Both the position numbers and the translations under genes were made by a program. The notes below the pieces were generated by a model. It was given only the letters and a program-made list of their open reading frames with translations, ran no database searches and was not told where the DNA came from. A stretch of DNA of 57,474 nt, filler included, from Asterionella formosa (Eukaryota): NCBI GenBank assembly GCA_002256025.1. It is 6 parts of 6 records of this genome, joined end to end, with 100 filler letters (N's around TTAATTAATTAA, not from the genome) between each part and the next. Parts side by side here need not be neighbours in the genome. Positions count along the whole stretch, not along the records: positions 1 to 9,516 come from NKIB01010581.1; positions 9,617 to 19,127 come from NKIB01010582.1; positions 19,228 to 28,735 come from NKIB01010592.1; positions 28,836 to 38,322 come from NKIB01010604.1; positions 38,423 to 47,904 come from NKIB01010609.1; positions 48,005 to 57,474 come from NKIB01010611.1. One strand, written 5' to 3'. Shown here piece by piece: positions 1,309 to 57,474 of the stretch (position 1 is the stretch's first letter; each line of letters opens with the position of its first letter).

Positions 1309-2477
1309 TTGATATAGGAAAACTATACATTGAGCTTGGGGAGTGCCAAATCCTTGGACTAGCGGCAACCATTGATTTATTCATTCATTTTACTGATATT
1401 GTACAATAGTTCACTTTCGACTATCAAAACATACTGAGTCTATGTGTGTAGGAAATGAGTGTAAAAATTAAATATTTGCTTAACAGCACACCGTACTAAT
1501 CATGTTCATTGCACACTAGGACACCACGGCGAAATTAGGCATGTGGGTGCAAATAATTACCGTAGTTTACAGGCTATCTAGATACCAGTAGTTAGTTAGC
1601 TAGTATTGACATTCACTATTACGATTTGTCTCCCTCCACTGCACCCCACCCCAAAAATGTCGGGTAACATATTTGTTCATTGTCCAGCCATCTCCTTTGG
1701 AATCTAGTTGGACACTAACATAACATAGATAATACAATCGTTAAAAAATAATGATAATAACACTGATATTGACAACGAAAATTGAAGTTACTGATGGCAC
1801 ATTGCTTCATGCAATTTAGATGATGCACAATTCAAAATGACGAAGTTACAAACAGACTTGACACTTTCACAGTTCCCAACACGCTATACTACGGTAATCT
1901 GTAGATCGAATGAAATTTTGTTTGATGCTCTTTTTAAGTAATTTTGATTAATAGTCCATTGACATTATCAACATGACTCTTTGTTGATGATTGCTAATCC
2001 AGTTGGCGACTACAACATGCAACTAGAAATCTGCTGACAACGACTAGAAACTACTGACTATGACCAGAAATTGCTGATTGGTTAATTCTATTCACGAACT
2101 GTGGTCATCAAGCAAGTTGCTGAATTTCATTTACCAGTAGTAGTTATAGGTGAACATGATTTCGATGATCAGAACATGACTTGGATTTAATGAGTGATAA
2201 TTTAACAGTGAAGAAAGTTACTTTAGAGAGTTCGGAATGAAAAACCAGTCTATCTTGTCTGACAGCCATAAGACAGTCCATTGAGAGTGCATTGAAACTG
2301 AAATTGTGCGCATAAAACGTGCGCCAATGGACCTTCCTGACTACCGGTACAGGTATGTACCGGTATCAAATGCTGAACAGCTACCACCAGGGTATCTGGT
2401 ACCTGGTACTATGATAGCATTGAGAAGCGCCTCGTCATTTGTACCAGGTAACAGGGAGTAGTCTACCTGGTACCGTA

Positions 2478-2577
2478 CCAGCAAGTTGCTTGCGATAATT
2501 GTGCTAAAGATGAAGATTTAGCTATCTTTATCCCATATGAAATTGTTTATTCAAGCAGGATGAAGGCAACTTGCTGG
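2478..2577. mobile_element. ~100-bp MITE, copy 1 (TIR CCAGCAAGTTGC, TA flanks)
   Basis: Perfect 12-bp terminal inverted repeat ccagcaagttgc…gcaacttgctgg with TA on both sides. Internal core tttagctatctttatccc is shared with copies at 56796, 57176 and ~50661. Confidence 0.8.
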
Positions 2578-2718
2578 TACAAGGTACCAAGTTCTGCTAT
2601 CGTACTACCGGGCACTGGTTCATATGTATATCTTACAAAACAAGTGCACACACCCCCAAGGGCAACAATGTTAGTCTATGGTAGATTGGGTACCTGGTAC
2701 CTGGTACCAGATACCAGG

Positions 2719-3929
2719 TGAGGGATCTCGCTCAACTACAGACATACCTATAGGGTTAGGTTTACATAGATATATCAGAACTCTATCAGGAGAGAACTCG
2801 ACTAACACCTACTTGAATACTTTAGTGTCAACCTAGGAGATCGAGTTGCACACAAGCATTAACTAATAAGCTCATATGTTCAACAAATACTACTACTTCT
2901 AGTTAGACACTCCACTTTGAATTCAAAAAGATTAAAATTAGAATTTTACAATGTTGATGTATTCTCAAGTCCCAGTGGTCCCATTGATCTAGGATTTCAA
3001 CCAACTAAACATCAAGAATAGCACCTTTCATTCATTCATACCAGTTCGACATCTTGAGTCTTTCAAGCAAGCAAGATGAGATTCATGGAACTCCGTGGAA
3101 GCTTTGTTGATTGTTGTGAGTTAATTCCACGACATGGTTTGTCTAACCTCCAGCAAGAAATGCCTTCTTTCTATTCCAAAGGTGCCTTACAGAAATCGCC
3201 TTGTCTGAATGGATGAACGTTGAAGTACTCCCAGATGATCAGCCCGATAACAGTTTTGATGATGCCATGGTGATATGGTTGGATGTGCAACTTTTTCTTC
3301 TTCGTCAGGATAGCTTTTCAGTGTCAGCATCAGTGGATGCTCTGATATTTGACAAAGCCATTCAGCATTTTCTAACGGACTTTCGGATACTGTCTCAAAA
3401 CCAGAAATAGACTCCTCAAGCTTGTGTATCATCCAGGAAATTTAGTGGTCATGAACCCTCCTGTTGGTCAGCTAGTGGCCTATGTGCCTAACAAAAACCA
3501 GCCGAATGCTGAACAGATTGCACATGTGTAACAATAGCAATGCTATTATTATGTATTCATGACGAAACATTGAATATGTCTCATGTCAGTCATCACCTGG
3601 ATATCATTTTGTATTTACAGGATAATTACGGTCTGAATACCGCCCTTTTATGTAAATGCGGGATATTCCAATAGCATAGCAGCCAGGATTCAATGTATCC
3701 CATGCATGATCTCACTGAATTATCATGCCTACTTCTGAACGAATAAATATTTGTCATATCAAACCTTTTCATAGGTGAAAGGTTTTCCCTTGGTGTGGGA
3801 GAGTGAGCGATCTCACTCAACTAGTAGTACAGACATACCTATAGGGTTAGGTTTACATAGATATATCAGAACTCAATCAGGAGAGAACTCGACTAACACC
3901 TATTTGAATACTTTAGTGTCGACCTAGGT
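2719..3929 (+). mobile_element. Short non-autonomous LTR retroelement (TRIM-like); 3' LTR runs into an assembly gap
   Basis: Direct repeat 2719-~2837 vs 3804-3929 (tgag.gatctc.ctcaacta…gacatacctatagggttagg…cctagg). Both copies start TG. The second is preceded by a purine-rich tract ggtgtgggagag (PPT-like). The first can end in CA at 2874 or 2885. The ~920-bp interior has no intact ORF. Confidence 0.7.
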
Positions 3930-4354
3930 NNNNNNNNNNNNNNNNNNNNNNNNNNNNNNNNNNNNNNNNNNNNNNNNNNNNNNNNNNNNNNNNNNNNNNN
4001 NNNNNNNNNNNNNNNNNNNNNNNNNNNNNNNNNNNNNNNNNNNNNNNNNNNNNNNNNNNNNNNNNNNNNNNNNNNNNNNNNNNNNNNNNNNNNNNNNNNN
4101 NNNNNNNNNNNNNNNNNNNNNNNNNNNNNNNNNNNNNNNNNNNNNNNNNNNNNNNNNNNNNNNNNNNNNNNNNNNNNNNNNNNNNNNNNNNNNNNNNNNN
4201 NNNNNNNNNNNNNNNNNNNNNNNNNNNNNNNNNNNNNNNNNNNNNNNNNNNNNNNNNNNNNNNNNNNNNNNNNNNNNNNNNNNNNNNNNNNNNNNNNNNN
4301 NNNNNNNNNNNNNNNNNNNNNNNNNNNNNNNNNNNNNNNNNNNNNNNNNNNNNN
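3930..4354. other. Assembly gap (N run) within scaffold 1
   Basis: Run of N without the TTAATTAATTAA linker. Confidence 0.99.
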
Positions 4355-4477
4355 CGGTACCTGGTACCACGCTATCTGGTACCAGGTAACCGGTTCCAGG
4401 AAACCGGTTCCAGTGTACCAGTACCAGGTACCAGGTACGAGGGGTACTTCTGGTACCTGGTACCAGGTACCTGGTAC
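4355..4477. repeat. GGTACC(A/T) motif cluster
   Basis: Multiple tacctggta / taccaggta / taccagta units in mixed orientation. Confidence 0.85.
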
Positions 4478-5004: not shown

Positions 5005-6264
5005 TCGAAATCCATCGCAATCATTCTTTTCCCGCAAGAGGCAATCGTACTTTCATTTCTGCACCAACTCTAACTTTCTCTGATCCAGGTGTTCTGGCAA
5101 TATCTGAAACCTTTTTGCTTGAAAATAAACACATTATTTAGCTCTCCAAAAGAATTCATGAACTAACATTACTACCAATCCAAGTATGCTAACAGAATGC
5201 TGGCTTTTTTGTCTGCATAGGTAGACATTCATCAATGACAGGGCTGTGCAGACTTGATGTCAATGTGTGTAGACATGCTTGTAAAATAACACTATCTTAG
5301 GTTTTTAAATCACAAATTTTGTTTGATGCCTGAATGATATTTGCCATGGCTTAAGTGCCGAGCAGCTTATTTTTAGGATGCATTACATAGAAAATATACC
5401 TTTTTTCAATGTGAAGGTTGGGTTACTTGATAAATGCATTTATGAGTTACTTACGTACCAGCTGTGAACATATATACCTACTCTGTTCCTATAATTTTAT
5501 TATTAGCATCTAAATAAAATGATGGAAACTAGTTTATATAAATATACGATAGTATATGAGTATAAATACATATACTGGTACATATACCTAGACATATAGT
5601 TGACTGACTCCTGGGATCCATATGAAAATGATGATGACTCAAAGCAACAATCCACCAGAAATCATGGAAGTTGTTGATGACGTGAAAAACAAATTGACTG
5701 TCTATTTCTATTTCATCACATCCTCTTTTGAGGTTCCAGAAACCATAATTGAGAACCATCTGATGCTCTTCTACTGACAAATCCCTCCTTCTAGAATGCT
5801 TTGTTAAGAGTGAGTGGTGGCTACTAACAGGGGGTCATGCATCTTCATTTTGGATGAGATGGGCAAAAGTGAAAATCCACTCCCCCCCCCCCATCACCAT
5901 CACAGCAAGGTTTGGGAAAATTGTTTCTTCAGAAAATCATTCTTTAAAATTCGATTTTGATTAAAATGAAATTAATGAGCAAGTGCAAAACCATTAGAAA
6001 TTTCTACAAGTCGAATTATATTGCCAGCAGAGGAGTCGAATTTGGGTGCCTGCCTGCGCTGTGTTTCATTGTTGGCAAAATGACTGCCTGCCTGTTCCAG
6101 CATTGTATGAAAGAGTCGAGCGAGTCGAGTCACCAATCTTGCTACCGTACTGGTGGTACCTGGTACCTCGGGTACATCTAGCAAAATGGTCCAGCATCGT
6201 CTAGAAGGTTCTACCAGATATGCCAGGCGATCCTACAAAGTGTAGGAAGGAACTCTGACTGACC

Positions 6265-9516: not shown

Positions 9517-9616
9517 NNNNNNNNNNNNNNNNNNNNNNNNNNNNNNNNNNNNNNNNNNNNTTAATTAATTAANNNNNNNNNNNNNNNNNNNNNNNNNNNN
9601 NNNNNNNNNNNNNNNN
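9517..9616. other. Artificial scaffold spacer (N44-TTAATTAATTAA-N44)
   Basis: 100-bp spacer with a six-frame-stop linker. The same structure occurs at 19128, 28736, 38323 and 47905. Confidence 0.97.
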
Positions 9617-10319: not shown

Positions 10320-10421
10320 TACAAAGTATTTCCATTTCCTGTGCATCTAAACATGATTTCATATATATATTACAAAGTATTTCCATTTCCTGTGCATCTA
10401 AACATGATTTCATATATATAT
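10320..10421. repeat. 51-bp perfect tandem duplication at the 3' end of the LINE
   Basis: tacaaagtatttccatttcctgtgcatctaaacatgatttcatatatatat x2. Confidence 0.9.
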
Positions 10422-10759
10422 TAATCATTTTTATAGCGCATTTTTACTAGTCTATTTCTAGGTTTGTCTTCGTTGCGCTCCATGGCCCTATTACTGTGCT
10501 GGGGCAGTGGAATTTTTGGTGGGTACCAGTAGTCATTTCCTCTTGAAGAAGTAGGGGTAAAAAATATTGTGGTAGCTTTTATCTGGAATCGGTTCCCTTT
10601 GACTGCACTGTTCATGTCAGCCTGAGAATTGGATGGTGAGTGTTGATTGGGTGAGTGATTTTCTGTATTTCCCCACTTCTTGTTGCTGTTTCTTGGTGTG
10701 TGTGTCGTTACTGGGGTTGTTGATTGATAGTAGGAGCTTATTGATTTTTGACCTTTCTC

Positions 10760-13700
10760 CGCCCATGCTTTTGAATCCGCAAATAAGTTTTTGGTCTTTT
10801 TTCCCAATCTTGATTTCAGTAGATCCTCGAGAGGAGTACCAAAAAGGTGCTCATCTCTACTCGAGATTTCCCCTTTGTGTTGATACAGTTTTTTAATATT
10901 TTTTCATCATATTCTGATTGTGATATCAAGTTATTCTGTCCATTCTGTAGTGCTTGGTTCATTTCATGCCATGCTCCTTCCGTGACTTTCCGGAGTTGTG
11001 AAATTGCCATTTTCACCCATAGCTAGGTTGCACATCCGTTGTGTCGGACTTGGATCCTGCTTTAAGCTTTGTACCGCTATTCTCCACTCTTTGCTCATAT
11101 ACCCCCTTAGTGTCATTATATTACCTCGAGCGTTTTGTTGGGCAATGGCCTTACGTATGTGTCTTTTTCTATTTAGTGGTGTACCCGGGACGAATTGGGG
11201 AACGAAACATATCTGATTTTGTGAGATGACATGTTGTACTAGGTATGCCTGGCATACGGAGGAAACTCTCTCACCTGTCTTGGACCTTTGTACTAGAGTT
11301 TGTGACATCTGTGAAATTTGTATGTCTGTTGTATTTGCTCTTTGGATGCTTGCAGTTGTGCATGTGTTCATTTGTTTCCCGCTCCCCACAGTGAACACAG
11401 CTGTCGGTGCCCTGGTGCATAACCTGTCTTCTTGCTCCTGTTGCGAGCCACCCAGGTATGTATTTTGTGATTGTCGTTTTGGTTTGTCCCGCTTGCTCTC
11501 TATAAGCTGCGGATAGGTTGTCCCAGTTCACCAGTTGTTCCCTGTTTTCGTCGTAATTTAATCCATGTGACCTTCGCTGCTATTAGTAATGTGTGAATCA
11601 ATTCCGCTAGAAGTGACACTATGTCTGCGTTGGCTGGGGGACGTCCCGTGTGCTTGCTCCATGACAAGAACCAAACTCTAGCTAGGGCGGCTGCACTGTC
11701 TGTCCAAATAGTTACCACGGAAGATGTGTCTGTCTTGTGGAACTTGATGAATTCCAGTAGAAATTTCAACGCTGGTGCAATTCCAAATAACTCCGCTCTT
11801 GTTGAGGTTGAGCTGTTCTGGTTGATATCTCCATCGACTGGCCCCGAGCAGGCTGCTGTTTGCCTTGGAATTAAACTTCTAGTTCCCCCCATTTGGTAAG
11901 CCATCCTGGTTTTCTTTGGCATTCCATGATTTCCTTCCTCAATCTTCGCCCATCTGCTGTTGCTATTTCCGCCACTGTAGTCACCTGTAGGAACATTCTG
12001 CATGCATTTAAATGAAAAAGTCTGGATTGACTCAATCCCTTTCCCGCCATGATGTGCATAATCATCAAATCGTTTTGACATTGCCTTTCAGGACTCCAGT
12101 GGTTACTGATATCGATTTTGAATTTGTTTTGTGCCTAAAAACTTTCGCATGGCTGTGCATTAGCCATGTTGGGGTTAAGTACGGAATTTCCTCTTCTGTG
12201 TGCATCAGTAAGGGTTCTTCGCAACCAGAATCTAGTTGACTGGTTCATGACGAGATATCCATCATTTTGCCACTTCATCTTTTGCATATTTGTGGAATAG
12301 AAAATTTTCTGTGGCTCTGATCCCTTCCTCGATTGATAAATACACTAGATTCAGTCCCCCTGTTGATATTGGGCCATAGACCAGCACTGCCTTCGGGAAA
12401 TTTACATTGAAGCCCATTTTTCCAAGACTCGCCATGCATGCATGCCCGCTTTTGTATGATTTCCAGTTGAGCTGATGTCATGCTTGTGATTGGTAGCAAA
12501 TACGCCATTTTTGCCGCCCATATCGCTTGGTGTGCCTGATCTGCGTCTCTTCTCCTCATCTTGTTTGACATTGTCTTTATTGCATGATCATTGCTCTTCC
12601 ATGGCAGCCTGTTGACCTCCCCTTCCCATGCACCTGCTGGGCTCAACATCATTCCCAGTGATTTTGTGCATTCTCCTGGGTTTTTATATGCTATAGTTAT
12701 TGGACTGGTTTTCTGATTGTTGCCTTGGATGTTTTTTACAACATATGTTTGATCTGGAGTTTCCCCTGGAATCGGAGCGAGCTGTGGTACCTTGGTGGAG
12801 CACCGTTTGTTGTGGATATCCCTGCTTATCCCACTGCCAGTGGATCGATTGATAAGAAACATTTTGATAGTTCCAGGGTGCCTCCTGAAGCAAATAATAG
12901 TTATTCCCACAGTTGTGCGCATTTTGTTAGGGTTTCAAGCATTGTTGCTATGATATTCATTCGTTCTTTGGGGTTGTCGTTGAAACCTAGACTGGTGTCG
13001 TCTACAAATGCATCTGCATATCGCTCTGATATGACCATGCCCGTTGGATCGCTGTATTTCATACCCCTTGGTGCATGTTTTGTATATGCTAACACTAAGG
13101 GAATGCAGATGGACAACCACACAGCTGGAGATACCCCGCTCCCTTGCCCTGTCCCTGCGAGCAGTTGTTCTTGATATGTACCCTGGTAGCGTGCCTCTGA
13201 TGTACCATAAATCGTTTTTATATTGTATTTCATCAGTCTGACTGTCTCTGAATGTGCTAATATGGCTCCTGTCGGAACCCCCAGTATTCTCGCGCTCAAC
13301 ATAGCAATATTGACTAGAATCCTGTCATAACAACTCTCTGCATCATTTTCAAAAATGGCGAGATTTGATCTTTGTTGTCTGGCGATGTCGAACGATAACG
13401 TCTTTTTGAATAGCACATCAAGTGTGCTTCTATGTTTTCTGGAGCCCTGCATGTCTTCGCCAAACAGTCCGCGATCCTCTGCTCTGCCCACCATATGAAA
13501 TCCCCATATCAATTTAAAGAACAAGTTGTAATTTGCTTCAAAAAGGTGGATGATGCAGAGACAATGGATTTTTGGATCTCCTTTGTCTTTTTCTAACATT
13601 ACTGATGTTGCTTGTTGCCATCTACTGGGAGAGAATCCGTTCGTCACTGGGATCATGTTAATCATCCTTGAGTACCCTATCAGTAATTCAGTGTCTTGTA

Positions 13701-15695
13701 AAGCGGCTTTGTAATGTCCCAGATGTCTACCAGCTACTGGGGGTCGGATGTAGAGGTCGATTCTTTCCATCCTTTGATACCTTTCTTGAAATCCGCTATC
13801 GATCTTTCTGTATTCAGCTGTTTGATACCTTTGAGTTCTGTTGGTATTGCCATGGAGGCAACTAGTTCTTTGACGCCCGGAAAGCACATCTCATCCACAT
13901 TGTGGAAAAGCGTGCCATCCAGTATCTTGTCTGCTGCTTCTGTCAGGCCGTTGAATCCTAAAAGATCCTTCATGGGTCCATGTCCAAACAATGTCACTGC
14001 TGACTTGCGATAGTGCTGATGACAGTGAGCTAGGATTGCACTTTCTAGACCCTCTGCCTCGAATTCTGTTGTCCAGGTGTGGCCATCTGACTGGATGGAC
14101 GGGACTAAAACTTTTGCTAGTGCTCCCCCTGTTCTTGAGTTGAAAATCTTTTTCAGTCTTTAGTTCCTCCATTACTTCGTCATTGATGATATTGAATGGG
14201 TGCAACCTCATTCTTCTTTTCCAGTATTGGTGTGTATATGCCGCTTTTCTGAGTTGTCTGGACCATGAGTGTTGTCCTGTTGGTTTTTTGACTGCCTTTT
14301 CTCGTAGCTGCATCGCCCTTCCTATGTCCCAGTCCAATTTTTCCCATTCCATTTGGATCACTTCTTTGGCGACTCTCTTGCTGTCCAACTCATTGATACT
14401 CCCTGCGATATTGTGGTTTCTCCAATATTTTTTAACTTCAGTTAGATATATTTTACAATCCTCTTGACTTATTGACTGAAACTGTCTAAGCTTTGCTGGC
14501 ACTACATCTTTTTGATTTCCTCCAAGCAACTTTTTCGGGTCAAAGTCGATATATAGGGCTCTGTGGTCTGCTTGAATTTTTTGTAAAATGGTAAGATACC
14601 TCCTCTTTCAACCGCATCTCTGCAATGTGCACTTCCCAGAATATAATCTATTGTTTTGGTTCCTCTGTTGTGGGTAACCGGACTTTTCAGTTCTTCGCTC
14701 AGAATCATTGATATTCCCGAGGAGCTTGAGCCAATTTCCTCATTTGCGTCGAGCATGAGTAGGATTTCCTTGTTGTCTTGTTGAAGTGCTTGAATAAACT
14801 GTATGATATCTCTAACAAATTGAGTTCTTGGATTTGGGTTTTGCAATCCCTTCTTGGACATGGCCATGTGCTTCTGGTGGTAGGAGGTCCCTTCACCATG
14901 GTGTGGCATAGAGGCCTGTGAAATTCTATATGCTGTGATTGCTGTGATGCTGACACCATTCTTGCCTTTTAGATTCATATACTAGCTCCAGTGACCCATG
15001 CCAGAGGGATCCTCGCCTGTTTCCTTCTCTGCTCTTCCACACCATTCTCCGGCTAGACCCATTGCCATTCCCCCTGGTTTGTAGTCCGATGCTGCTGGCA
15101 TCTCACTTGTCGAGAACTCGCATTTCACTGTTTGCATTGGTTTCTGGGCTCTTACTCTGAATTCCGTTTTTGTGCCTTGATTAAGCCAGTTGGTATTTGT
15201 TTCTGCCCCATGATTTCATAGTTTCCATATAGTATATCAGATCCGTTGATGTTCTTTGGAGATGGAGACCTTGAATATTTTTAAAATATACCCTGAAGAT
15301 GTTTTCCTCTGACATAATCATTTCATCCCCCCATGTTGATGGACTCATATCTGCAGACTTTGTGGATATGCCCATTTTTGTTTGTATTTCCTTCTTCGGG
15401 ATTAGCCTGTCTTGTTTTGGCTCTACGATCTGCTTGGGTCCTATGTGTGTGCGTAGTATCTTTCCCTTTCCCCCTCTAATTTCTAACTTGGATGGGATGC
15501 AGTTTCTTTGTGGGTAATATTCCTATCCCGTGTTTCATGTTCTTCAATCTGGCTCGTTTCTAACATCTGATCTCCAACTTGGTCTGGGTCGGTGGGATAC
15601 CGTGACCGGAGAGCTGCTGGATCTATCATTTGATGATAGGGGGACTTGTTGAGCTTGCTGGTCTACGGTGCCTTGATCTCTGTTTTCCGCCAGCA
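10760..15695 (-). pseudogene. LINE ORF2 (endonuclease, reverse transcriptase, RNase H), disrupted
   Basis: ORF-track pieces 15181-15375, 14502-14978, 13891-14529, 12901-13887, 12275-12922, 11500-12081, 11271-11531 and 10964-11398 tile one polyprotein. Confidence 0.85.
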
Positions 15696-15710
15696 TAGCT
15701 TCTAGAGGAG

Positions 15711-17992
15711 CTACACTGTTTTATGCAAGGTGTTGAGAGCCGGAGTGAGGGAGTTGAGTGGCTGATGAGTTGTGGTTGAAAGACCAGATGGTGGTTGAAT
15801 GCTCTCGTGGTCTTGGTCTTCTGACTGCTCTGTGTCGGAATCCTCTAGGGGCGGTGGCGCGGAGTTTGACCCGTTTTTGGCAATGGTTTTCTTTGCCTTT
15901 TTCACTGCTCTGTGAGCCATGTGCCATGTTGCTGTGTCGCTCCTTTCCATTCTTGTTTGTATTGCCTCCATGTCCTCTGGTGATGCTGCTCTAATTTGAA
16001 GCTCACTTGGAAGTTGAGTGAGGCTTTCTTCCTCGTTGGATGTGTAATTGCCTGATTCTGGATTGGAGTCTGTGGTTTGGGACCACATTGCTTGTGTAGA
16101 GAATTCCGATCTCTGCCTGGTTTCGCTTGACATTCTTATGCCTGAGCCAGCTAGAATCTTGACTAATTCTTGGATGGTAACACTGATCTCCGATAGTGTT
16201 GTCGTTGTCTCGCTTGCCTGTGTCCGGAGATCTGATATTGATGAGGCTGTGAAACTTGCCTGTCCCGCCGCTTTAAATTGGTATCCTATTAGTGCATCGA
16301 TGCTCTTTCGCATCATTCCCATTTCTGATTTAATGTTTTCATTGCTTGGTCATATGTGCCTTGTTTTGTTGCTACCTCATTCAGGAGTCTTTCAATCCCA
16401 TCCCGTTCGTCCTCCATGTCCAGGGTCATTTGATCTGTGCCTACTGTCGCTTGGGAAGAGTTATTCATGGTAACCTTCTCTGCATATGTGTGCTTGCGCT
16501 TGGGGTGAACGTGTTTGTTTCGATGTCCTGCCTGTGCCGCTGCTTGGGTGGGGATTTCTGTCTCTGTCATGGATTCTGCATTGGTAGGCTTGAATCTTGA
16601 CAGTAGAGCATTCACATGCTGTTGGTCGGCTGCATTCCTGTTTCCGCCTAAAGGTACTCTCTTCATTGAGTAGGTGGGTGGTGTGCTCTCCCCATATTCC
16701 TGTATGAGGAGGCGGTTGAACCCTGATGTATGTTTGATTACCTCTATCTCATTTGCTGCTGGATATATGATGACTGGAACTCCTGATGTTGTGTAATCAG
16801 TGTTGCATAGTAGACAGTTATCTGTGGAGTCCACTGCTTCAAGCATGTATTGTCTGAACGTCGTTATCTTGCCTTGAATAATTAGTCGAGTATCTATATC
16901 CTTAAAACCTGCCATCGTCAGTTTTGTCCTTGTGGTGGTTGTCAGCCATTTTTGTTGATAGTAATACTGGGCTATTCCTTCATGATCTTGATCTGCTGCG
17001 AAATTAATGGCGTGATATCCCACAAAACCAATTGAATAGTCTGATCTTATGGGGAACAAATTTGTCATTGCGTTGTAGGTTGCCTGCGCTGTGTTCTTGC
17101 TCGCTCGCACTGATGCCATAGGCATATGTCTTCACTTCTATTCTGAATTTGGCGTATTTTATTCCCTGGCTCCTTATTTGAAAGACCAAAGTAGAGGAAA
17201 CCTCTTCACCTAATAAACTCTTTATCCATTCCGTTGTACATTCTATCAAGGCTATAAAGCTGTTCTTTCCAAATACTACCCTACTTGCACATCGTCCAAG
17301 CTTTGATGTGTATATTCATCTAAGAACATAAGATTGTCCTTCAGAAATGGAATAATACTTCTCTTCATTGTGGAGTACTTCTGTGATTTCACCTTGATGT
17401 ACACGTCAATATACTATCTTTTGGTACCATCTTTAATCTTGATATATTTGAGTGGTTGATCCTCTGGATTGAGTTTGAACGCCACTTTTATTGAGATTTC
17501 TGAATTGGCATGATCTAATGGGAGGAGTTTGAATGTGACATCTTTCTCTCTCATTTCTTCCATCATTTTCTCCAACAAGTTCTTTTTGAAGATGACTGTT
17601 TGGACTTCGAAATTATCATTCAATGGTGTAATGCCTTGAACCTTTGTTTTCCAGCTAAGCATCGGGTTTCGCATGATGCTGTACCCTTGCTCCAAGGTGG
17701 AGCACCTTTGGACCTGACTTGGTTGCTTGATCTCTGCTGTCCTCTTGTTTCCTGGTGCCCCCTCCTTTGTGATGCCTACGGCATGGGGCAATGGTGTTCC
17801 TGTCAATCCTGCAGTACCTTCATCGTTATTTTGTTCGTCCTTTGCATCAGTGTCCTTGAAATGTCGGCCTTCCGTTGTGGCTACTAGTACAGCTGCAATT
17901 GTTTTGTTGTGAATGAATTCCTCGCTTATTCCTTTTTTCTTTCTGTGTTGAATGATTCTCCGCTGTACCCTCATCTTCATTTTCCGGTCCAT
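15711..17992 (-). pseudogene. LINE ORF1-like, disrupted
   Basis: Long co-oriented ORF fragments (17414-17992, 16313-17125, 15711-16322) lie directly upstream of ORF2. No recognisable domain. Confidence 0.6.
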
Positions 17993-18472
17993 TTCACTCT
18001 TTGCATAAAAGTGACCGAAAATGCATAATTAGTTAGTCAGGGGAACTCGGGATTACTTTTTAAACTAAATTTGTAGCAAATCAATAATAATTTTTATCAA
18101 TGATAGAAACTTTTCCTAACTAAGTTTTCAACGACTCTTTTTACTTATTATATTGAAAATCGAAAAATAAATATCTATTTGTACTACTGTACATTTTGTC
18201 AAGAAATCGAAGTAGCTAGCGACAGTTTTGAGTCTGAGATGATTAGCTTGATAACTTTGACTAGAAAAGGTTTCCTATGATTTGTAGAAATAGATGAGAA
18301 AACCTGAGCGACAGTATTCTCGGAGAAGGTACAACATTTCAAGATGCAACAAATTCCTTTACGTCAATTTTGTAATGAGTTTCGTGTAGGCACTAATTGT
18401 CGTGGTACATTTTTACGGAATCTTGAGTAGGGGGTTAAATATAGTCATAAATGCGATATCTACGATGTTTAC

Positions 18473-19127: not shown

Positions 19128-19227
19128 NNNNNNNNNNNNNNNNNNNNNNNNNNNNNNNNNNNNNNNNNNNNTTAATTAATTAANNNNNNNNNNNNNNNNN
19201 NNNNNNNNNNNNNNNNNNNNNNNNNNN
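19128..19227. other. Artificial scaffold spacer
   Basis: N run with TTAATTAATTAA. Confidence 0.97.
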
Positions 19228-19317
19228 TTCTTTCACCCTCGGAATCCTGTGAAAACCATCCATTCACCATCAAGTGCATACCAGTCGACGTTTGGAAACA
19301 ATCGTTGTTCAGGGGCT

Positions 19318-28735: not shown

Positions 28736-28835
28736 NNNNNNNNNNNNNNNNNNNNNNNNNNNNNNNNNNNNNNNNNNNNTTAATTAATTAANNNNNNNNN
28801 NNNNNNNNNNNNNNNNNNNNNNNNNNNNNNNNNNN
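28736..28835. other. Artificial scaffold spacer
   Basis: N run with TTAATTAATTAA. Confidence 0.97.
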
Positions 28836-30642: not shown

Positions 30643-30689
30643 TTATATAAAACATATTTACTGGCATGTACTCCTGCATACATGCCAGG

Positions 30690-32290: not shown

Positions 32291-32565
32291 GTTTTGAAAG
32301 AGGATAGGATAGCGAACGACGATGAGGACAAAGGAGGAGGAGAGTAGGTTGAGTCAATTAACGAACCTGACAAGCTCAATAGGAGTTTGTAAGGGAGTAT
32401 GTTAAAAAGAGTGATTATAGTAAAGTAAAAGGAAATAGATATGAACGTAGAAGAAGAGCAACACGGGTAGAGTCAACCATCAGTGTCTGACATACAGACA
32501 TACATGATGGACATGATATTATGGTCGTAGTAAATCAAAAATGAAAAAGTGCCACAATCACCATC

Positions 32566-36965: not shown

Positions 36966-38171
36966 AGAAAATATTGTGAGTTGGCCACAAAAACTATGTG
37001 TGTTTCTAAAATAATTATGGAAGTTTTCGAAACTATTTTAGTTCACTCCGTTCATATATATTGTATGATGTATCATATTTTTTATGTGATGTCATACCCT
37101 TAAATTATTTACATAGCTAAATTCGTCATATTGGGCCACCCAAATAATTTAATTTGGGTGATCATATTTGACTAGTGTTTTTTCTTGTAGCTTTACCAGA
37201 AATCGGCGTTGCAAATGGATGCCAAGCATGTTGTGTTGAATAACAATCTGAGCATATTGAAGTGCTTCTGTCTCCTTCTTGATGTTGGAAGCTCGACCTT
37301 TTCTTGAATTTGGCATGGTGGTGCTGGTTTGCATGATAGCTGTGTGCTGTTTTTCATATCTAGTGGACTGACGGATACATACATATCAAAATCCTCAATC
37401 AGATATAGGTGTGCCATTATCATTTGCCATCTCTGTACAATTCAATTCCAAAACAAAATCTATATTGCTGTAAATGTGGTTAACGTTCAGACACAAATTA
37501 AATCAATATCGAAATATTTGTATACATTGTTGTATTATATGACGATGAGAACTCCAAACTTACCCTAATCCGTGTTCCCTATTTCCAGCAATCTTTAGAG
37601 ATGAACAACTGACTCCAAATCTCAAACTGAATACATAGCTGACAAGCCACATGCTCAAGAAGGAGCCAGAACTCTCAGAATTTACCTTTACTTAAGTTTT
37701 GATGGCAACGCACACGTGTTATTCTGGGTCACGGCAGTTCAAAAATATTCTCGATGGTCATGGCAGTTCTTCACTTGTACCTGGTACCTTGCCTTCCAAG
37801 TTGCGGTGAAACAGAAATTTAGCTTTGTTTTCCTCGAAGTCAAAAACTTCTCTACCCTACCGGTTTAGCACGACCGGTACCTGTTACGGTACCAGGATAC
37901 CCTTTCCATCTACCGGCGGTACCTGGTACCTGGTACCCCGGTACTCACACCTCGTCGCCACACACCAACCATCATCGACTTTCGAGAAACATCCATGGCG
38001 ACGATGCATGACCCTATGTATACATACAACATATATGTATACCGTTGTTTATTATTACCACACGTGTCCCCTATACCAGAAGAATGTGAGGACACTTCAA
38101 TGCATGAATAATTGCTGCATTGGATTGCTCCTTCTGCATTCTTCTATCCATATCCTATTAGCTATTTCACC

Positions 38172-38258
38172 ATGAAGTTCCCCACCCTTGCTACTCTTGC
38201 CTTGATCGCCGCCCCTGTGGTTGCCGAGATTTATCTCAAGGAACAATTCAATGATGAG
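38172..38258 (+). CDS. CRT: Calreticulin, exon 1 (rest cut off by scaffold end)
   Basis: MKFPTLATLALIAAPVVA|EIYLKEQFNDE is a signal peptide plus the typical calreticulin mature N-terminus. Followed by a GT donor (38259) and an AG acceptor (38309). Absent from the ORF track. Confidence 0.7.
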
Positions 38259-38322
38259 GTGCGTTTTTAGTGTCATAACTAAGTTGGAGACCTTTCCATA
38301 TTCATGTAGGGGCTGGTAATGA

Positions 38323-38422
38323 NNNNNNNNNNNNNNNNNNNNNNNNNNNNNNNNNNNNNNNNNNNNTTAATTAATTAANNNNNNNNNNNNNNNNNNNNNN
38401 NNNNNNNNNNNNNNNNNNNNNN
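38323..38422. other. Artificial scaffold spacer
   Basis: N run with TTAATTAATTAA. Confidence 0.97.
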
Positions 38423-38647: not shown

Positions 38648-38751
38648 GGTACCTGGTACCTGGTACCTGGTACCTGGTACCTGGTACCTGGTACCTGGTA
38701 CCTGGTACCTGGTACCTGGTACCTGGTACCTGGTACCTGGTACCTGGTACC
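38648..38751. repeat. (GGTACCT)n heptamer array, ~15 perfect units
   Basis: Read directly. Degenerate units continue to ~38890. Confidence 0.97.
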
Positions 38752-45749: not shown

Positions 45750-46540
45750 AATATGGCGAACACATGGTTACCAGGGACCTCACTTACCTAAGCTGGAACC
45801 AGGACAAACTCAATCAATGCAATCGATGTCATTCAGAATAGATGACACCGGACCATTCTGGATGATTCAAGTTGAACGAGATCAAAAGCGCCATGACTTG
45901 GTACTGTCTAAGGCGCAAGAACACAACTTACCAATTGAAGAGACTAAAGCAAAAGTTATCGAAGGATGGGAAAATTAAAAAATTGAGATTGGAGACCTAC
46001 ACGTTGAATGGAAAGCAGGATGCATTTGGATTTGTGCAGAAAGACTTTTATTTGAAGTCGCTGAAGGGAAACTGTCTTGATTTCGAGGAAGAGGAGATAC
46101 TATTGCAGTTAATGGGAAGGGAAATGGGAGTACTTGTTGACCGAACGCCAAAATGTCACTTTGAACTTGCAGGAGAGGGAATCGAGTATTCTTGGGGTTG
46201 CGCCAAGAATTTTTACTTTCGGGTTTCTCTGAAGAGGAAAAAGGGTAAAGAGGACTTCAGGTCTGTGGTGCGAGAGAGCCTGTCAAAAGACAAAGTGTTA
46301 ACAACAAAAAGGATAAGACAGTTTTCGAGGCGAGCAAGACAATATATATTTTGTGCATAATTCAAGATTTGGAAAGATCTGGAAGAACAACAACATGACA
46401 GGATTGTCGCCGAAGTTGACACAAAAACACATGAACCGGACCCCATCAGTGTTGAGAAGCTTGTCAAACAATTCAAAATACACCGCTGTGCTCTCAGTTT
46501 CGACACAACGTTCTGCAAGGCAGCCTATGTCAACGATCTA
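45750..46540 (+). pseudogene. IS630/Tc1/mariner-superfamily transposase, C-terminal relic
   Basis: RTPKCHFELAGEGIEYSWGCAK fits the PKxHxEL…IE..WG..K box around the catalytic Glu, followed by FSRRARQY. The N-terminal part is missing or decayed. Confidence 0.7.
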
Positions 46541-47904: not shown

Positions 47905-48004
47905 NNNNNNNNNNNNNNNNNNNNNNNNNNNNNNNNNNNNNNNNNNNNTTAATTAATTAANNNNNNNNNNNNNNNNNNNNNNNNNNNNNNNNNNNNNNNN
48001 NNNN
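47905..48004. other. Artificial scaffold spacer
   Basis: N run with TTAATTAATTAA. Confidence 0.97.
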
Positions 48005-49625
48005 CTAACCATTTTTCCTGCTTTTACAGGGCACCATGTTTCAGAGCAGTAGTCGTGGCAGCCAAATAAATGATTGATTGGTGCCTTGGAGGAAATACTA
48101 AATTCGGCCAGAGAGAGGTTCCGGTTTTTTTTAATCCAAGCGCCATAGTAAACTTTCAACCGGAGACAATCTGCTTTTGAGGGACGCTCGAGGGAGACTG
48201 GGCCATTGGATTTCATAAAAGCTGGGCGGAGAAGTACCCGTACTCTGTGGGATGGGTCAGACAGAAATGTAGGTTCGGGTACAGTCAGTGGAAGGCATCC
48301 TTTGTCCGATTTTTTTAATCCTTTCAATGTTCTTGGCCATTGGAAGGATGGCTGTAGTTTCAATAACTCCTTATAGGACCACTTAGAAACAGCTCGAATA
48401 GTAGAATCATCATCACAGATGATTGTAGAGTAGATAACATTGTTTTTCATTACTGCATCAATCATCATTTCTACACCAGCATCTGGTTCCATTGCTTTCG
48501 AACTACCAGTTACATGATTCTTGGGAAAAACATGTTCCTTGATTGGTTTATTGTACCGTATAGCCCTTTCGCACACATTACAGACCTTAGATTTAAGTCT
48601 GTAATCTAGTATCTTTTTCGTGTAGCCGCCAATACAAAAAGCATGTCCACTTACAGAGTTGTACTTATTCCCGCTGGAACGCTGCTGCCAGCCCATATCG
48701 TAACTAACAGTGAGTCGAGGCATATTCAGTACAGACAAGCGATCCATACCAGTCAGACTGTTCCACTACTGAAAATCACGTCCTTTGTCAGCCCAGTCTC
48801 CTCGTTCATGGACATTGAGTGTCAGATATATTTCCTCCTGACACGCCTCTTTCATTGCAAGAGCGGTTGCAGTAACTTCAGCGTTTCCTACCAGTTCCTC
48901 TACTGCACCAAAGTTACCTTGCGTAGACCAAAATCCAAAGGTAAGTGGAAGATTCATTGCGGAGCAGATGATATCTGCATCTGCTGGTCCCATTCCGGCT
49001 TCGTGACAACCCAAAATAAACTGTTTGTTGATAGAAAAGTGTTTTGCCTCTATTGCGTTATTTCTTATCTCATCATTTCTGTCTCCATTACTGTTGCTTC
49101 TTGCAGGTTCGAGTTTAGAAATCAGTTTCTGATAGGTCAAACACCAAGAGACTTTGAATTCGCTTGCCAAGCCGTAATTTTTGATAGAGACAACGATCAA
49201 CGATTGTTTCATTGTTGAAATCAGAAAGTCAAACAAATCCTGCTCCAGAAATGATTCACATTGCTGTTCAATGGACAGCTTTTGTTGTCTATTTTATGTA
49301 AAGTAAGTTACAAAGTCACGAAGTGATTGTTTGCAATATTCTTTTACAAATTTATTAACACAACTTTTGCAATACATATTTTCCTGCAGAAATTTCGACA
49401 ATGTATTATAGCGATTATATGAGGATTCATGTTCAGTTGAGAGCAGTCTGTTTTAATTGGTGACGATGTGATTGCTAGTTCAATTGGTGAAGTGGTTGTT
49501 GTAGGGGGACAAAAAAGCATCTTAGAGGTACACCAATTTTGATTTTCATCGGACCCTATATTTCGTCCTCCTTGACCACCAACACCAATTTCGGAAATGA
49601 GACGGCTACCACTGGAACGTGGCAT
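48005..49625 (-). pseudogene. Kolobok/'Mutator-like'-family DDE transposase, interrupted
   Basis: LTVSYDMGWQQR…YNSVSGH, KVCNVC, KNH..GSSKAME, IICDDDST, DPSHR, HLFGCHDYC…WC. ORF pieces 49344-49625, 48766-49236 and 48005-48747. Confidence 0.8.
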
Positions 49626-49805
49626 GATTTTGTCTTATAATAGTTGGTGTTGCTGTTTTTTTATGGCTGGTTGATTCGTTTGATTGTGTAAAAAGAAAAT
49701 ATTTGTTATTCATGCCACTTCATTTCTAGAAGGTTTTGAAACATCATACGTAGGTGGATTGAAGTTCTTGATTTCCTAATGAAATAAATGAAAATCGTAA
49801 AAGCA

Positions 49806-50256
49806 TTAATCACTAATAGATTTAGAACATTTAGAACGTTTGAAATTTGGTTTGAAACCAGTGTACACTTCGTTTGGGTCCTTGTTCTTCAAAAGAGATC
49901 GAACCCCCTTCAAACAACAGTCAGGAAGTTGCATCCAAACACCTTTTCCCAATGGACCACTGAAAACTCTGATTAGAAACTTGTACAGAAGATTGCGGGC
50001 TCTTGATGCCGTAATGTCTTCATCCTTCAGCCTGGTAAGAATGGATTCACCTTCCAGAAACTTCTCCACCAACTCTTCGACTTCATCACTGACATTCAGG
50101 GCAGCAAAAATCGCACCATTCGCAGAAGATGCGATCCTCACATCCCTCCACATACGACTCTACAATCAACCGGTCTTGGCAGGTAGGACAACTATCATGA
50201 CTGTAGTTAAATTCGTCATTACCCTTGTCATCATTTTGATGTGTAATTTCGCTCAT
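49806..50256 (-). pseudogene. KolX-like accessory protein (related to the P2X7 C-terminal 'ballast' domain), one frameshift
   Basis: Cys-rich part (FCEWCDFCCPEC), then RNLLYK…GPLGKGVWMQLPDCCLKGVR…YTGFK, which matches the KolX pattern R..AY…G.LG.G.R..LP.C….IR…Y.GF. Confidence 0.75.
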
Positions 50257-50660
50257 GGTTGATTGTTGCTTTTTTTGTTTCTTACCGGTAGTCATCAAAA
50301 ATATTTGCCATGCTGCTGCCAGCTCGTCTGACACATATATGTTGATTGTATGATAGGGTATATAAACATTGAGCGATGGAGAATGTTTATGTATATAATT
50401 ATTGAATTGAAAAAGGAATCTATGTATGTATGCGCAAATTTCCAGTGATTCAAATATTTCAAATGGAATCAGCACGTCATTCAAAATTAACTCATAAAAA
50501 TTCTTAGTTCCACGGAATTTCGGCAACCCTAAGCAATATTTTAATTTTTGCCTAGGGGTTCAAATGCAGGAACCTTAATGTTACATAGTTCCTGGGTGAT
50601 ACTTGGTATATCCATTTACTGGTAGCCTCAGTCTATTTCCGGTCCTGGTACCTGGTACGT

Positions 50661-50725
50661 GCAAGTTGTGACAAATTGTGCAGTTGACGCAGCTAAAGCA
50701 TTAGTCTTCTTTATCCCATATATGA
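50661..50725 (+). mobile_element. Degenerate partial copy of the 100-bp MITE
   Basis: gcaagttgtgacaaattgtgc…ttagtcttctttatcccatat, preceded by cctggtacctggta. Confidence 0.5.
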
Positions 50726-53275: not shown

Positions 53276-55287
53276 GAAGGCTAGGATAATCCAGAGATGC
53301 AGCAACAACATCAAATTCGTTATTCACTTGTAAAAAAGTAGACCACCACAATATGTGCCATCATTCAAACAATATCATCTCAGGAGCATTCATTTCAACT
53401 TGTATTTTTTAATGAGTACTTATAGATCCTGTTTTGACAATTAACCATTATTCAATTGTCAAAACTCATGATTTTCCTGCATGCACATCATCTTGCAGAA
53501 TTGTATAGGCCTTTCTTTAGCATTTGTTGGATTGTAAGTTCTTAGCGGAAACCCACTGTTTTTGTGTTAGTGCATTGGTCCATACACTCCGTCTCAAGAT
53601 AATGGCCAAGGCAAGGAGATCACACTGCCTTTTGACAGGGATGCAAACAATGAGAACCTAGCTTGGCGCATCCCTCTCGTCCTTAGAATTTTCGTTCAAC
53701 ACAGATGCAGCTTGGCCATCAGAGCGACAAGGAATCGAATATTTGCAGTTAGTTTTCTTGTTAGTTGGAAGCAATTGTTGATTTGGCGGACCACATGGAA
53801 TTGACAGACACAACACACATGCAGGCAGCTTATACAATTGATGAATTGGATATTTTATACTTGAATGAGCAAAGGATGACCACCATGATTGAAATCTTGC
53901 TAAATGTGAGACTCTAGAAGCTGCCTTGCTTGTAATGTTTCCCTTGTCTTATCTGCAGACTTGTTCTGTTTTATGGCCTTTTTGATGACAAGGTCATTGA
54001 CAGGCACATACCTTGTTCGATTTCCGCTCTGGGTAATAACATTCCAAGTGAAAGACAATGTGGCATAAAATACTAAAATGCCTTCTTTTGTAGTAATATT
54101 TAATGGAAGAATGCTGGCCAAGTGTTTGGTTATCATCCTTGTTTTCCCCAGGCTCCTCTACACTAAACTCACAGCTTTTAGTATCATAGGATATTTGCCA
54201 TAACCTCTGTACAACATCATAGAAATAAGTACACTTTTGTAAGCATGGGAATGCGTCAGTTCATTTACTCTCCTGGTCAACATTGTTGCCATGCTGATGT
54301 TTAATTGTACTGATGTTTAAGTTTAATTCAATTAATATTGTTTTACCAGTAGTATAATCCCTCAACATAACATATCTACCAGTATGAGGAAGAATTTCTT
54401 GAACAATACCATCATATACCGCAGGGTTCTGTTACCCCGTTGGTAGAATATTCTACCAAAATGTGAAAAATAAATTCTACCCGTGCTACTGGTTAGAATT
54501 TTTGCCTTCCTCTCTACCATATTTTCACCACGGTCAAGCAAGGGAGGGGTACCGGACAGTAATGACCTGTCCGGAGTAGAACACTCTACCAGATCCCCAC
54601 AGTACAGAATACTACTATGTACTTTGGTAGAATTTCGTCTATAATGTCAAGGTACCATCATGTCTCGAGTAGAACAATAACAGGGGTCCACAGAAAGAAA
54701 CAACTTGGGTTGAATTTTACCAATAACAGTAATAGTCCTCAAATGTACTGGTATGTATTCATGTACGCACTTCGAGTACATAGCTAATACCTTGGCTGTC
54801 CATGTATTCATACAACTGTATATAGATGTACGATTATGATGTAAGTAGGTATTCTGTGAGCTATTGCTTCCAGGACCGAGCAGAGGAATGAAATTCTGTA
54901 ATGACGTCCTCTGTTGACGTGTAGGAATGCAATGACGCCAGCAAGCGAACTCATCATTGAAAAGACCTCTTTATTCTTCTTCGTTTCATACCTATGTATG
55001 TACAGAGTATGTAGTCCCTGATCCCTGATTCAACCGGTACCAGGGTACCTGGTAGCTAATAGCATGATGTTGGCTCCCGGTATAACGGCATTTGCTCCGT
55101 TGGTGGTGCATGCTGCTGTGACTATCAAGAGTCGGTTCACGGCCACCTCAGCCACGACACAACCACGTTGTCAACTTTGTGTATGCTGGTGCAGGACTGC
55201 CTACTCCGCCTGTAACAAAATATCACCCCCTACCCTGCTCATATTTTGAATTGCCACAGAATTTTTCTAAACCTATCAGAAACAAAG

Positions 55288-55899
55288 ATGACAAAAGCCA
55301 TCAAAACCGTTGCTCTTTTGGCAATGACTGCCACATCAAACGCATTTGCCCCAGCCCCCCACAAGAAAGCACTGACAGCTAGCTTCGCTGCCTCCAACCA
55401 TTTGCCTCATTTCATTGACCTAGTTGAACCGCCACCATCTGATTCAATCAAGGTCACAAAGAATGAGAAAGTTGCTGCTAAGAAGCACCAGGAAGGCTTG
55501 TTCTCACCTATAGTCATTGCAGCCAAGAAGTTGATTGGTGAGAAAAGCCTGAACAAGCTTCGTGGGGATGCGATCTCCCTACATTCTAGTGTTATCACCA
55601 GTTTCGTTGATACTGCTGAAACGCCCTTCGGCAAAACCGTCTTGAAGACCCTTTTCTCCATTACTGACAAGGACGCCAGTGGCACTATTGAAGAACAGGA
55701 GCTTAAACAAGCTTTCAATATTCTTGGCTTCACATGGCTACAAGACAAGCAAGTTCGAGGCATCCTTGAGCGGGCTGACTCAAACCAGGACGGGAGGATT
55801 GATATGGATGAATGGATAAATGAAGCACCGAAGACCTTGAGGACAAACTTGATCAAGCTTGCCAAGAAAAATGGTGGTGAATTGGGATTTCTATCGTAA
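55288..55899 (+). CDS. Plastid-targeted EF-hand calcium-binding protein
   Basis: Signal peptide ending SNA|FAP (ASAFAP-type motif). Two EF-hands, DKDASGTIEEQEL and DSNQDGRIDMDEW. Confidence 0.9.
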   Translation: MTKAIKTVALLAMTATSNAFAPAPHKKALTASFAASNHLPHFIDLVEPPPSDSIKVTKNEKVAAKKHQEGLFSPIVIAAKKLIGEKSLNKLRGDAISLHSSVITSFVDTAETPFGKTVLKTLFSITDKDASGTIEEQELKQAFNILGFTWLQDKQVRGILERADSNQDGRIDMDEWINEAPKTLRTNLIKLAKKNGGELGFLS

Positions 55900-56795
55900 C
55901 TGTTTAATCGCTTCCACTTTACTTTTCCATAAATGAATGATACTTGAAATGACTAAATAACTACATTTTTCATCACAGGCCAATTTATCTATACCATGAA
56001 ACAAATCAAATTAGACGAAACGTCAGTTTACAAATTCAAGCCATTCTACAACCATATTAGAAGGAAATGTACACCTTGAGACATTTGGCCGGAATACGGT
56101 ATTACTCATTGGACCCGTGCAAAAGAAGTTAGTTAAGTATAGTCACTGAGGCCACAATGGGGCCAGGCAAAGTAAATTCGCTATGTTCTATCACAGACGA
56201 GTCAATGGTTGAACTGTAGATCTGCAAAACGACCACTATTGCGGCATAGCCTACTATTTTTAGTTTGTTGTCAATATATAGACTACTTTTATCGAAAGGT
56301 GTGCAACCACTTCATTGGCTGACTCAGCCGTCCTCACCTATATCTCATTGTTCGATTCATCACCTGATGTCCTGATTCAATCGTTCTCTCAATCTGGGGT
56401 TCATGTGGCATGCAAATGAGAGATTCGTCAGAACCACAGGTAATACATCTCGACTACCTTCACAACTAGATTGTGGTTGAGGCCCTAAATTGTTTTGTTC
56501 AACTATGGTTGCTAGAGGATATCGTAGCATTTTGCTTCCGTATCATTTTGACTACTACATACTAGAAGTTTTCTTGTCACAATTGAACATTCTCAGCAGG
56601 CCATCAGAATTCAGATGGCAGGGACGAACTTCGTATCCTCCGACAAAAGTATCATGCAGACGAAGGACGCAGGGCGATATACATCACCGAGAAAGCAAGG
56701 TGCCAGGAACTATGTTACGAGTATGTTGTCCACATGGTGTACTTCGAAGGACTTGGTTCTCGGAGTCTTGTGTACCAGGTACACAGTACCTGGTT

Positions 56796-56892
56796 CCAGC
56801 AAGTTGTGGTCATTTTGCTTAAATAAACAATTCAATATGGGATAAAGATAGCTAAAGTTTTAGTTTCAGCACAATTACTGCAACCTGCAAGG
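56796..56892 (-). mobile_element. ~100-bp MITE, copy 2
   Basis: Its reverse complement aligns end to end with 2478-2577 (taattgtgct…tttagctatctttatcccatat…aattgtttatt.aagca…caacttgctgg). Confidence 0.8.
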
Positions 56893-57175
56893 TACGCACC
56901 GGGTCCTGTCCTATGGCATCTGGGACAAAGTGCCTGCTACTTGTACTTACTACTCGGAGTACCAGGTAACGGTACTCACCTGATAACAGGACCTTGTCAC
57001 CAATCTGGTGCTGACAACGCACTGCATCCCCCTCGGAGAACTTCATGACATCGTCAACAAACGCGCGCTAGGAAAAACGAAATGCTGCCCTTCGACAAAA
57101 GGCAGGAGTGCCTGTTTTCTGGGTTCCCTGGTACCTGGTAACCATCAGTTACTCGAGTACCGGTACTCCTACATA

Positions 57176-57271
57176 CCAGGAAGTTGCGGTAATTTTGCTG
57201 AAACTAAAGATTTAGCTATCTTTATCCCTGATTAAAATGTTAGATAAAGCAAAATGACCGCAGCTTGCAGG
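57176..57271 (+). mobile_element. ~100-bp MITE, copy 3 (TA flanks)
   Basis: ta|ccaggaagttgcggtaattttgct…gatttagctatctttatccc…gcagcttgcagg|ta. Confidence 0.8.
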
Positions 57272-57474
57272 TAACCATTACTTATGACTTGGTTCATACC
57301 GGTAGTCTACCGGGGTACCAGGTACCTAAAATGATGATCGTGAGTGAATGAGAACTCGTCGTCGCCATTTCTTCAAACCCGAACCCAACGAACGGACGAG
57401 CGCCAGAAGATCGACAGGTGGCGGTTGGACACACGAGGAACTGAACAGTCATGGACTCAAACAGGTCGTGAGGT

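Follow-up and report, generated by a model that had tools for sequence, protein, structure and literature searches.

Non-coding DNA of the diatom Asterionella formosa is rich in short words in which a few bases stand between two TA dinucleotides: TACCAGGTA and TACCTGGTA (together TACCWGGTA), TACCGGTA, TACCAGTA and TACTGGTA. They were examined in a window of 57,474 bp, the whole stretch analysed, which consists of six contigs of ~9.5 kb each with spacers of 100 bp starting at 9517, 19128, 28736, 38323 and 47905. The words are probably healed excision sites of TA-duplicating transposons of the IS630-Tc1-mariner group, written by at least two families. It is very likely that pogo elements with CCG ends write TA-CCGG-TA, and reasonably likely that an element with CCAG ends, which prefers GG|TA|CC as its target, writes TA-CCWGG-TA together with the CCAG/CTGG and CCAGGG/CCCTGG forms. 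An 88-bp miniature inverted-repeat transposable element (MITE), to which a preliminary description of this DNA had attributed the words, takes the scars as its landing sites and is not their author.

Abundance and placement of the words

The window holds 13 copies of TACCAGGTA, 32 of TACCTGGTA, 15 of TACCGGTA, 11 of TACCAGTA and six of TACTGGTA, 77 in total. In 40 order-2 Markov simulations TACCWGGTA was expected 0.7 times (maximum 4) against 45 found, the CCGG word 0.4 times (maximum 2) against 15, and the CCAG/CTGG words 2.1 times (maximum 7) against 17. The reported clustering of the motifs in non-coding DNA is borne out, as coding DNA, delimited only roughly at 18.1 kb or 32% of the window, contains a single one of the 77 words. 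The eleven places originally listed contain 53 of them; those at 6157, 50649, 55046 and 56773 have a single full word each and 37860–37945 has two.

The motifs had been called window-wide. They are real, but the window is six unlinked contigs that share the trait, which makes it a property of the genome (68.4 Mb, 15,436 contigs), in which TACCWGGTA has 26,886 sites and the reversed control pattern 902. A protein of the window has three named relatives among the 120 listed, all of them from diatoms. TACCGGTA is probably as numerous genome-wide. In 190 kb of stretches picked irrespective of their content there are 88 CCWGG and 103 CCGG sites. The spacers (9517–9616, 19128–19227, 28736–28835, 38323–38422 and 47905–48004) are artificial, each 44 N, TTAATTAATTAA and 44 N, and join contigs sorted by size, so that nothing is read across them.

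A spectrum of TA-x-TA counts from 497 kb of loci gave 189 CCWGG (7 expected), 188 CCGG (1.5), 120 CCAG/CTGG (20), 20 CCAGGG/CCCTGG (0.5), 72 CCG/CGG (31) and 14 CCSGG (1). In the same sample CCA/TGG (87, with 80 expected) and CCATGG (1) were not enriched. The central base of the five-base unit is almost always A or T, TACCSGGTA being found once in the window. Further excesses fit the ends of other resident elements (CA/TG, 519 against 360; CTCSGAG, 4 against 0).

The words could also be binding sites of a promoter protein, produced by ordinary mutation, selection and slippage, with the transposons tethered by that protein. The 76 of 77 words outside coding DNA, the position of several clusters just upstream of genes, and the three or four unrelated families that land on the word all speak for such a role. 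We consider this origin improbable, since whole units of 6–13 bp arise in one step and with no local template at bare TAs within transposon copies, including terminal inverted repeats (TIRs) and pogo bodies, and since the variants match the ends of resident transposons. A possible later regulatory use of the words is compatible with their origin as scars.

Empty and filled sites

Contig C10964 (locus L151) is a 92–93% identical homologue of 28836–37867 and most likely an allele of it; more generally, the homologous contigs compared here may be alleles, paralogues or strains. The two differ by 45 indels. A pair of these consist precisely of CCGGTA, located at a TA, with one filled in each sequence. 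TACCGGTA at 29577–29584 faces a bare TA in L151, and the bare TA at 37114–37115 faces TA+CCGG+TA, with no CCGG within ~40 bp that could have acted as template. CCWGG words account for two other indels, each of 7 bp; at TACCTGGTA of 37778–37786 L151 is the shorter sequence, and a footprint and a tandem duplication are not separable there. At 37866–37867, a TA beside TACCGG, L151 holds a young CCG-ended pogo element and the counterpart is empty and without a scar. Contigs from four public runs on 28836–38322, swamped by repeats, showed no motif in the 12 indels listed (there were 250 more).

An all-against-all scan returned 35 rows of empty/filled pairs, several of which repeat one site; grouped by eye, they represent ~13 distinct CCGGTA sites, besides CCCGGTA, CCCTGGTA and stacked cases. 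The CCGGTA gains lie in pogo bodies, in a TIR and in other repeats. In repeat copies the direction of gain can be read because the majority state is known. The reference of the 88-bp MITE contains neither CCGG nor CCWGG, and copies from a length-selected set bear TA+CCGGTA at four different TAs, although a single event may underlie all five of those filled at MITE position 11. CCGGTA and then CCTGGTA are stacked at one formerly bare TA in L063, and L210 has a longer stack. CCWGG units differ within pure arrays, by 14 bp between L063 and L064/L065 and by 7 bp between L084/L089 and L088. The variants thus have the footprint form of TA, terminal bases and TA that had been proposed, and are gained at bare TAs, while the MITE of the window is not their source. 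Homologues with an empty TA are clear for CCGG and weaker for CCWGG.

Such inserts might instead come from repair or template switching, independent of transposons, that adds CC..GG at a TA as an inverted micro-triplication. For the MITE site GCGGTA|ATT the flank itself could have been the template, and the genome is full of 3–4 nt XY-G/C/GC-XY inserts at many dinucleotides. However, the same CCGG follows TGTTA, ACATA, GTTTA, GCTTA and ATATA; copying these flanks in inverted orientation would yield different letters. The insert is independent of its flank, which excludes local template switching, and we give the explanation as a whole very little credence.

Probable scars, their candidate authors and visitors

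Profile searches of the genome with DDE_1 gave 93 matches. TA flanks the complete elements on either side, and their termini are CCGTA (three families) or CAGTG. One CCG-ended family has ten copies that are 99–100% alike. The element in L141 encodes a 421-aa frame (PF03184, E 1e-21) and has a 21-bp perfect inverted match that includes TA at both ends; further CCG-ended elements are found in L146, L144, L211 and L228. With a DDE_1 transposase, short TIRs and a TA duplication they are typical of pogo elements within IS630-Tc1-mariner. An element of this kind would insert at nearly any non-coding TA, and its excision would leave two 3-nt CCG overhangs that could anneal through CG to give CCGG, and then CCG/CGG and CCSGG. 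TACCGGTA, formerly derived from a CCAG-ended MITE, is better assigned to these elements. A supposed CCGG-ended MITE (TA-CCGGACAA...TTGTCCGG-TA) was rejected as its author, as the flanks are common to the copies and the sequence is therefore internal to a larger repeat.

The TA-flanked CCAG...CTGG element that had been described as landing in the words does exist, as a separate family of ~0.75 kb with no copy in the window. Its ends read CCAGTTAAAAACTG, with 46 exact ends in elements of 0.58–0.75 kb; 42 of the 46 are preceded by TA, in a search pattern that fixed the first letter to A/T, and 42 have A at position 3. Both ends, in inverted orientation and with a TA duplication, were seen in contigs C164, C5982 and C10603. 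Here overhangs of 4 nt would anneal through C-W-G to form CCWGG, and other registers would give CCAG/CTGG and CCAGGG/CCCTGG. Sleeping Beauty overhangs likewise anneal around a central mismatch; in the diatom, a mismatched centre repaired either way would orient the units at random. A 3-nt stagger was not supported, CCA/TGG and CCATGG not being enriched.

The bases outside the TA connect each scar class with its proposed author. For the CCAG family, 22 of the 46 ends were fetched among the TA-CCAG ends, chosen blind to their flanks; with shared sites merged and one end from another locus added, the set has 17 ends. G precedes the TA at 15 of these 17 and at 8 of 36 pogo ends (25% of all TAs), and GG at 11 of 17 and 2 of 36 respectively (Fisher p ~1e-5; 7% of all TAs). 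Among the words, 62% of CCWGG unit ends and 10% of CCGG unit ends have GG as their outer neighbour; when only ends not touching another unit are counted, the values are 41% of 249 and 5% of 356. Each scar class shows the flank bias of its proposed author. The CCAG/CTGG words are intermediate (12% of 207 ends), as expected of a mixture with CCGG words altered by CpG decay, which would turn some CCGG into CCAG/CTGG and may account for much of TACCAGTA and TACTGGTA; L212 and L228 have CCGG and CCAG at a single site. In L235 a CCAG element sits inside an array, between (CCAGG)2 and CCTGG, and the array would grow to four units if this element were excised and left a CCWGG scar.

An alternative is that only TACCGGTA is a footprint, and that CCWGG arose from it or from GGTACC by small mutations and slippage, the CCAG element, the MITE and the Gypsy-like family all being visitors. 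Whole-unit differences in pure arrays and the pure 14-mer at 38650 agree with it, as do the restriction of CCWGG gains to positions beside G or GG, the small number of CCAG copies and the use of the site by three families. The orientation of neighbouring units is however near-random and 33 of 68 arrays are mixed, and the centre is strictly A/T (189 CCWGG against 14 CCSGG). CpG decay of CCSGG was rejected as a source of CCWGG, as its sibling products were not enriched (6 against 3.5 expected). The excess of CCAGGG/CCCTGG (20 against 0.5) furthermore requires the four bases with which a resident element ends, CCAG. We therefore regard this alternative as unlikely, though the least unlikely of those weighed here.

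The 88-bp MITE family is old and abundant, with 784 candidates at 80–86% identity and 173 exact two-ended matches. Its limits are CAAGTTG...CAACTTG and its TIR starts CAAGTTGC. From 98 copies 82 unique sites were kept, of which 41 have clean CWG flanks: CTG/CTG at 21 and CAG/CAG at 16, hence 37 direct, CAG/CTG at four and CTG/CAG at none (p 1e-7). The other 41 have at least one flank altered. Where both centres are A or T, 61 sites agree and 8 differ. The flanking 3-mer is direct, as in a target duplication, whereas a TIR would read inverted, which rules out the ends of the MITE as author. TA is present on both sides in only 24 of the 82 sites, unlike the TA duplication of Stowaway-like Tc1/mariner elements, and the TA flanks first taken for a duplication are part of the target site. 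The canonical sites can be read equally well as a 1-bp W duplication with G..C ends; a GAG/GAG site in L049 favours 3 bp. Reconstruction of the empty sites most often yields TACCTGGTA (9) and TACCAGGTA (8).

The MITE as writer of the words, through CCAG...CTGG ends and a TA duplication, is suggested by one copy of the window, which reads TA-CCAG...CTGG-TA, and by the neighbourhood of the insertions, as another word lies within 100 bp of 56 of 71 MITE sites against 506 of 3,724 background windows (13.6%). This co-location had been predicted, and is explained by the use of TACCWGGTA as a target. Words derived from the real ends of the MITE (CAA, CAAG, CCAGC) show no enrichment in the 497 kb, where scars retaining its duplication (TACCWGCWGGTA) are rare (2). 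With the direct CWG repeats, these results make its authorship extremely improbable.

Three of the four ~100-bp copies reported in the window are full. The copy at 2482–2573 (plus strand, 92 bp) has flanks CAG/CTG, one of the four discordant cases among the 41, and is the only one that reads CCAG...CTGG, which suggested such ends for an element of 88 bp. The copy at 56800–56887 (minus strand, 88 bp) has flanks TTG/CTG, and that at 57180–57267 (plus strand), within the cluster 57128–57330, has direct CAG/CAG within TAC..GTA and reads CCAG...CAGG. The fourth is probably the truncated, degenerate piece at ~50663–50721 (plus strand) that follows TACCTGGTA in 50649–50721.

A CWG target duplication defines NuwaI of the PHIS superfamily (PMC4482050), and the target of Harbinger3_DR is AAACACCWGGTCTTT, with an ACCWGGT core (PMC3016246). 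The 3-bp CWG duplication and the palindromic target with the same core in the diatom MITE recall both. The TIRs of NuwaI, known from 16 animal genomes only, usually start with GGG (PMC4482050), whereas that of the diatom MITE starts with CAAG. The MITE resembles NuwaI/PHIS in target duplication but not in TIR start and is at most a candidate member; no transposase was found for it, although no search aimed at Harbinger transposases was made.

A Gypsy-like long terminal repeat (LTR) family also inserted at TA-CCWGG-TA (the window, L159, L154 and L156). The window copy at 2719–3929 (plus strand, LTR starts at ~2719 and ~3804) has its 5' end after TACCAGG, and the family starts after TACCWGG at 2719 and at seven other loci. 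In L159 CCAGG stands on both sides of the element, an apparent 5-bp duplication, and the relatives in L156 and L159 carry Gypsy-like pol open reading frames (ORFs). The MITE, with its CWG duplication, and this family, with CCWGG, would both use the unit as target.

Growth of the arrays and known systems

Every scar would leave one TA preceded by GG and its partner followed by CC. A scar that supplies GG and CC beside TAs improves the target, so that repeat visits would stack units with a random centre base. From the counts, duplications, ends, flank biases and empty/filled pairs observed here we infer excision as the source of the inserts, the lengths of the overhangs and this feedback. We see about an even chance that the repeat feeds itself in this way: pogo scars would seed GG-TA and TA-CC half-sites, the CCAG element would add one unit of random centre per visit, and promoter arrays would record serial insertion and excision, the word now being a landing site for the MITE and the Gypsy-like family and possibly a promoter signal.

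Neighbouring units in the 497 kb, with the 14-mer omitted, have the same orientation in 18 cases and the opposite in 17. The identical orientation of neighbours expected of slippage is therefore absent overall and found only in long pure arrays. Slippage also acts, as indicated by the excess of same-oriented neighbours, by the 14-mer and by pure runs whose alleles differ by 7 or 14 bp, and would lengthen some arrays. The claim that re-insertion builds mixed-orientation arrays accordingly stands in so far as units stack in mixed orientation; it does not extend to the longest array, the pure, same-oriented (CCTGGTA)14 at 38650–38749 upstream of an ARM-repeat gene, which was probably expanded by slippage. 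Mixed arrays in the window lie at 4358–4476, upstream of an ORF from ~4639 (CCAG, CCAGG, CCAGG at 4416–4437; CCTGG, CCAGG, CCTGG at 4454–4476), and at 29070–29092 (CCAGG, CCAGG, CCTGG), where L151 has seven more bases, one extra degenerate unit. CCAGGG and CCTGG are stacked at 55038–55054 upstream of an EF-hand gene, and a lone TACCTGGTA in GG..CC context lies at 6157–6165 upstream of a glycosyltransferase gene. A cluster of seven full words at 2342–2720 surrounds a MITE copy and stops at the LTR start.

Several observations weigh against the proposed origin of the words. Empty TAs were found opposite TA plus unit, as had been anticipated for alleles and paralogs, but among the loci compared there was no excision event and no site both scarred and element-filled, nor did any homologue gain a single CCWGG unit at a TA without an adjoining G or GG. 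Most CCWGG differences between homologues (L063, L084, L089 and window 37778) are equally explained by slippage, allele pairs give no direction of change, and neighbouring units over all loci lean to the same orientation (50 against 36). Mutator-like copies aligned to the L171 reference over ~59 kb contained neither a CCGGTA nor a CCWGGTA insert, which suggests that the process is local and would also be predicted of a selected promoter signal. The CCAG family has only 46 exact ends against 26,886 units, and the flank match, in which two of the 17 ends belong to elements already represented by their other end, cannot separate author from visitor; it could be a visitor like the MITE and the Gypsy-like family. 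The copies seen lack a transposase ORF, and the expected transposase with CCAG TIRs was not found in profile searches: those of the genome with PF13358 and PF01359 were empty, the latter matching no control either.

Excision of the rice mariner Osmar5 and of Triticeae Stowaway elements leaves TIR fragments of 1–4 bp between duplicated TAs, and in intron 4 of the Triticeae beta-amylase gene one case is described of a new element at a TA that already bore an older footprint, the two lying side by side (PMC1925063). The diatom words share both features. The case described there, however, is one locus with at most two layers, whereas in Asterionella the sites number tens of thousands, more than one author is involved, arrays are formed, and the preferred GG|TA|CC target would be created by the scars themselves. 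The pogo element Passer leaves scars of 0–4 bp (PMC9976928), and Passer and Sleeping Beauty resemble the present elements in TA duplication and in such scars after end-joining (PMC9976928, PMC2874221). These are laboratory products of single excisions. The 5-bp CCWGG scar of the diatom would need overhangs of 4 nt. We find it probable that a known process, footprints and re-insertion, here operates at an unusual scale and with feedback. Literature searches with limited coverage of subscription papers yielded nothing on these diatom words or on arrays or microsatellites built of footprints.

Microsatellites can be born from transposon sequence, mobile DNA seeding a repeat that slippage extends. 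Such repeats originate in the element's own sequence, whereas in the diatom every unit would stand for one round of insertion and excision. If the proposed origin is correct, footprints, usually treated as rare by-products, are among the commonest words in the upstream DNA of a eukaryote (~27,000 TACCWGGTA) and keep a tally of past cut-and-paste activity that the surviving copies hide. Microsatellites would furthermore have a route of origin in which slippage is not the first step, and transposon families would build the target sites of other families beside genes.

Other transposons and repeats

Remnants of plant-mariner-like transposases were found in L231 and L232, the sole end seen being CTCC-like, and the L231 end adjoins (CCTGGTA)3. 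A metagenome scan for the CCAG end returned one uninformative contig end. L021:543-1374 holds a Stowaway-like, TA-flanked element with CTCCCTCC ends. Pogo and plant-mariner-like elements (L141:781-1218, L231, L232) have in common a small convergent, Cys/His-rich second ORF with 151 matches. The transposase-like ORF at 45866–46360, which has no Pfam match and 151 genome matches, was rejected as the CCAG source: 45 stretches around its relatives show GG-ended, TWA-flanked ends and no CCAG. A relative lies in the 6.7-kb region L115:1668-8339, with 57-bp TIRs that start with GG and are flanked by TAA.

The repeat at 48005–50578 and in L171-L209 is present in ~40 copies of 82–98% identity and encodes a Mutator-like transposase (PF20700, E 8e-36). 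It ends in a GG-type TIR before TTAA, as does a non-coding element at ~29590–30648. The copies in L171-L209 are full of 3–4 nt XY-G/C/GC-XY inserts or exact 3-bp duplications at many dinucleotides, whose pattern suggests scars of further cut-and-paste families genome-wide. A degenerate tandem array of ~195-bp units at 32567–34280 is kept in the L151 allele, and its deep coverage in public runs indicates that it is repeated elsewhere. A decayed LINE-like element occupies the minus strand of 10421–18028; its RVT_1 match (E 1e-5) falls short of the curated cut-off.

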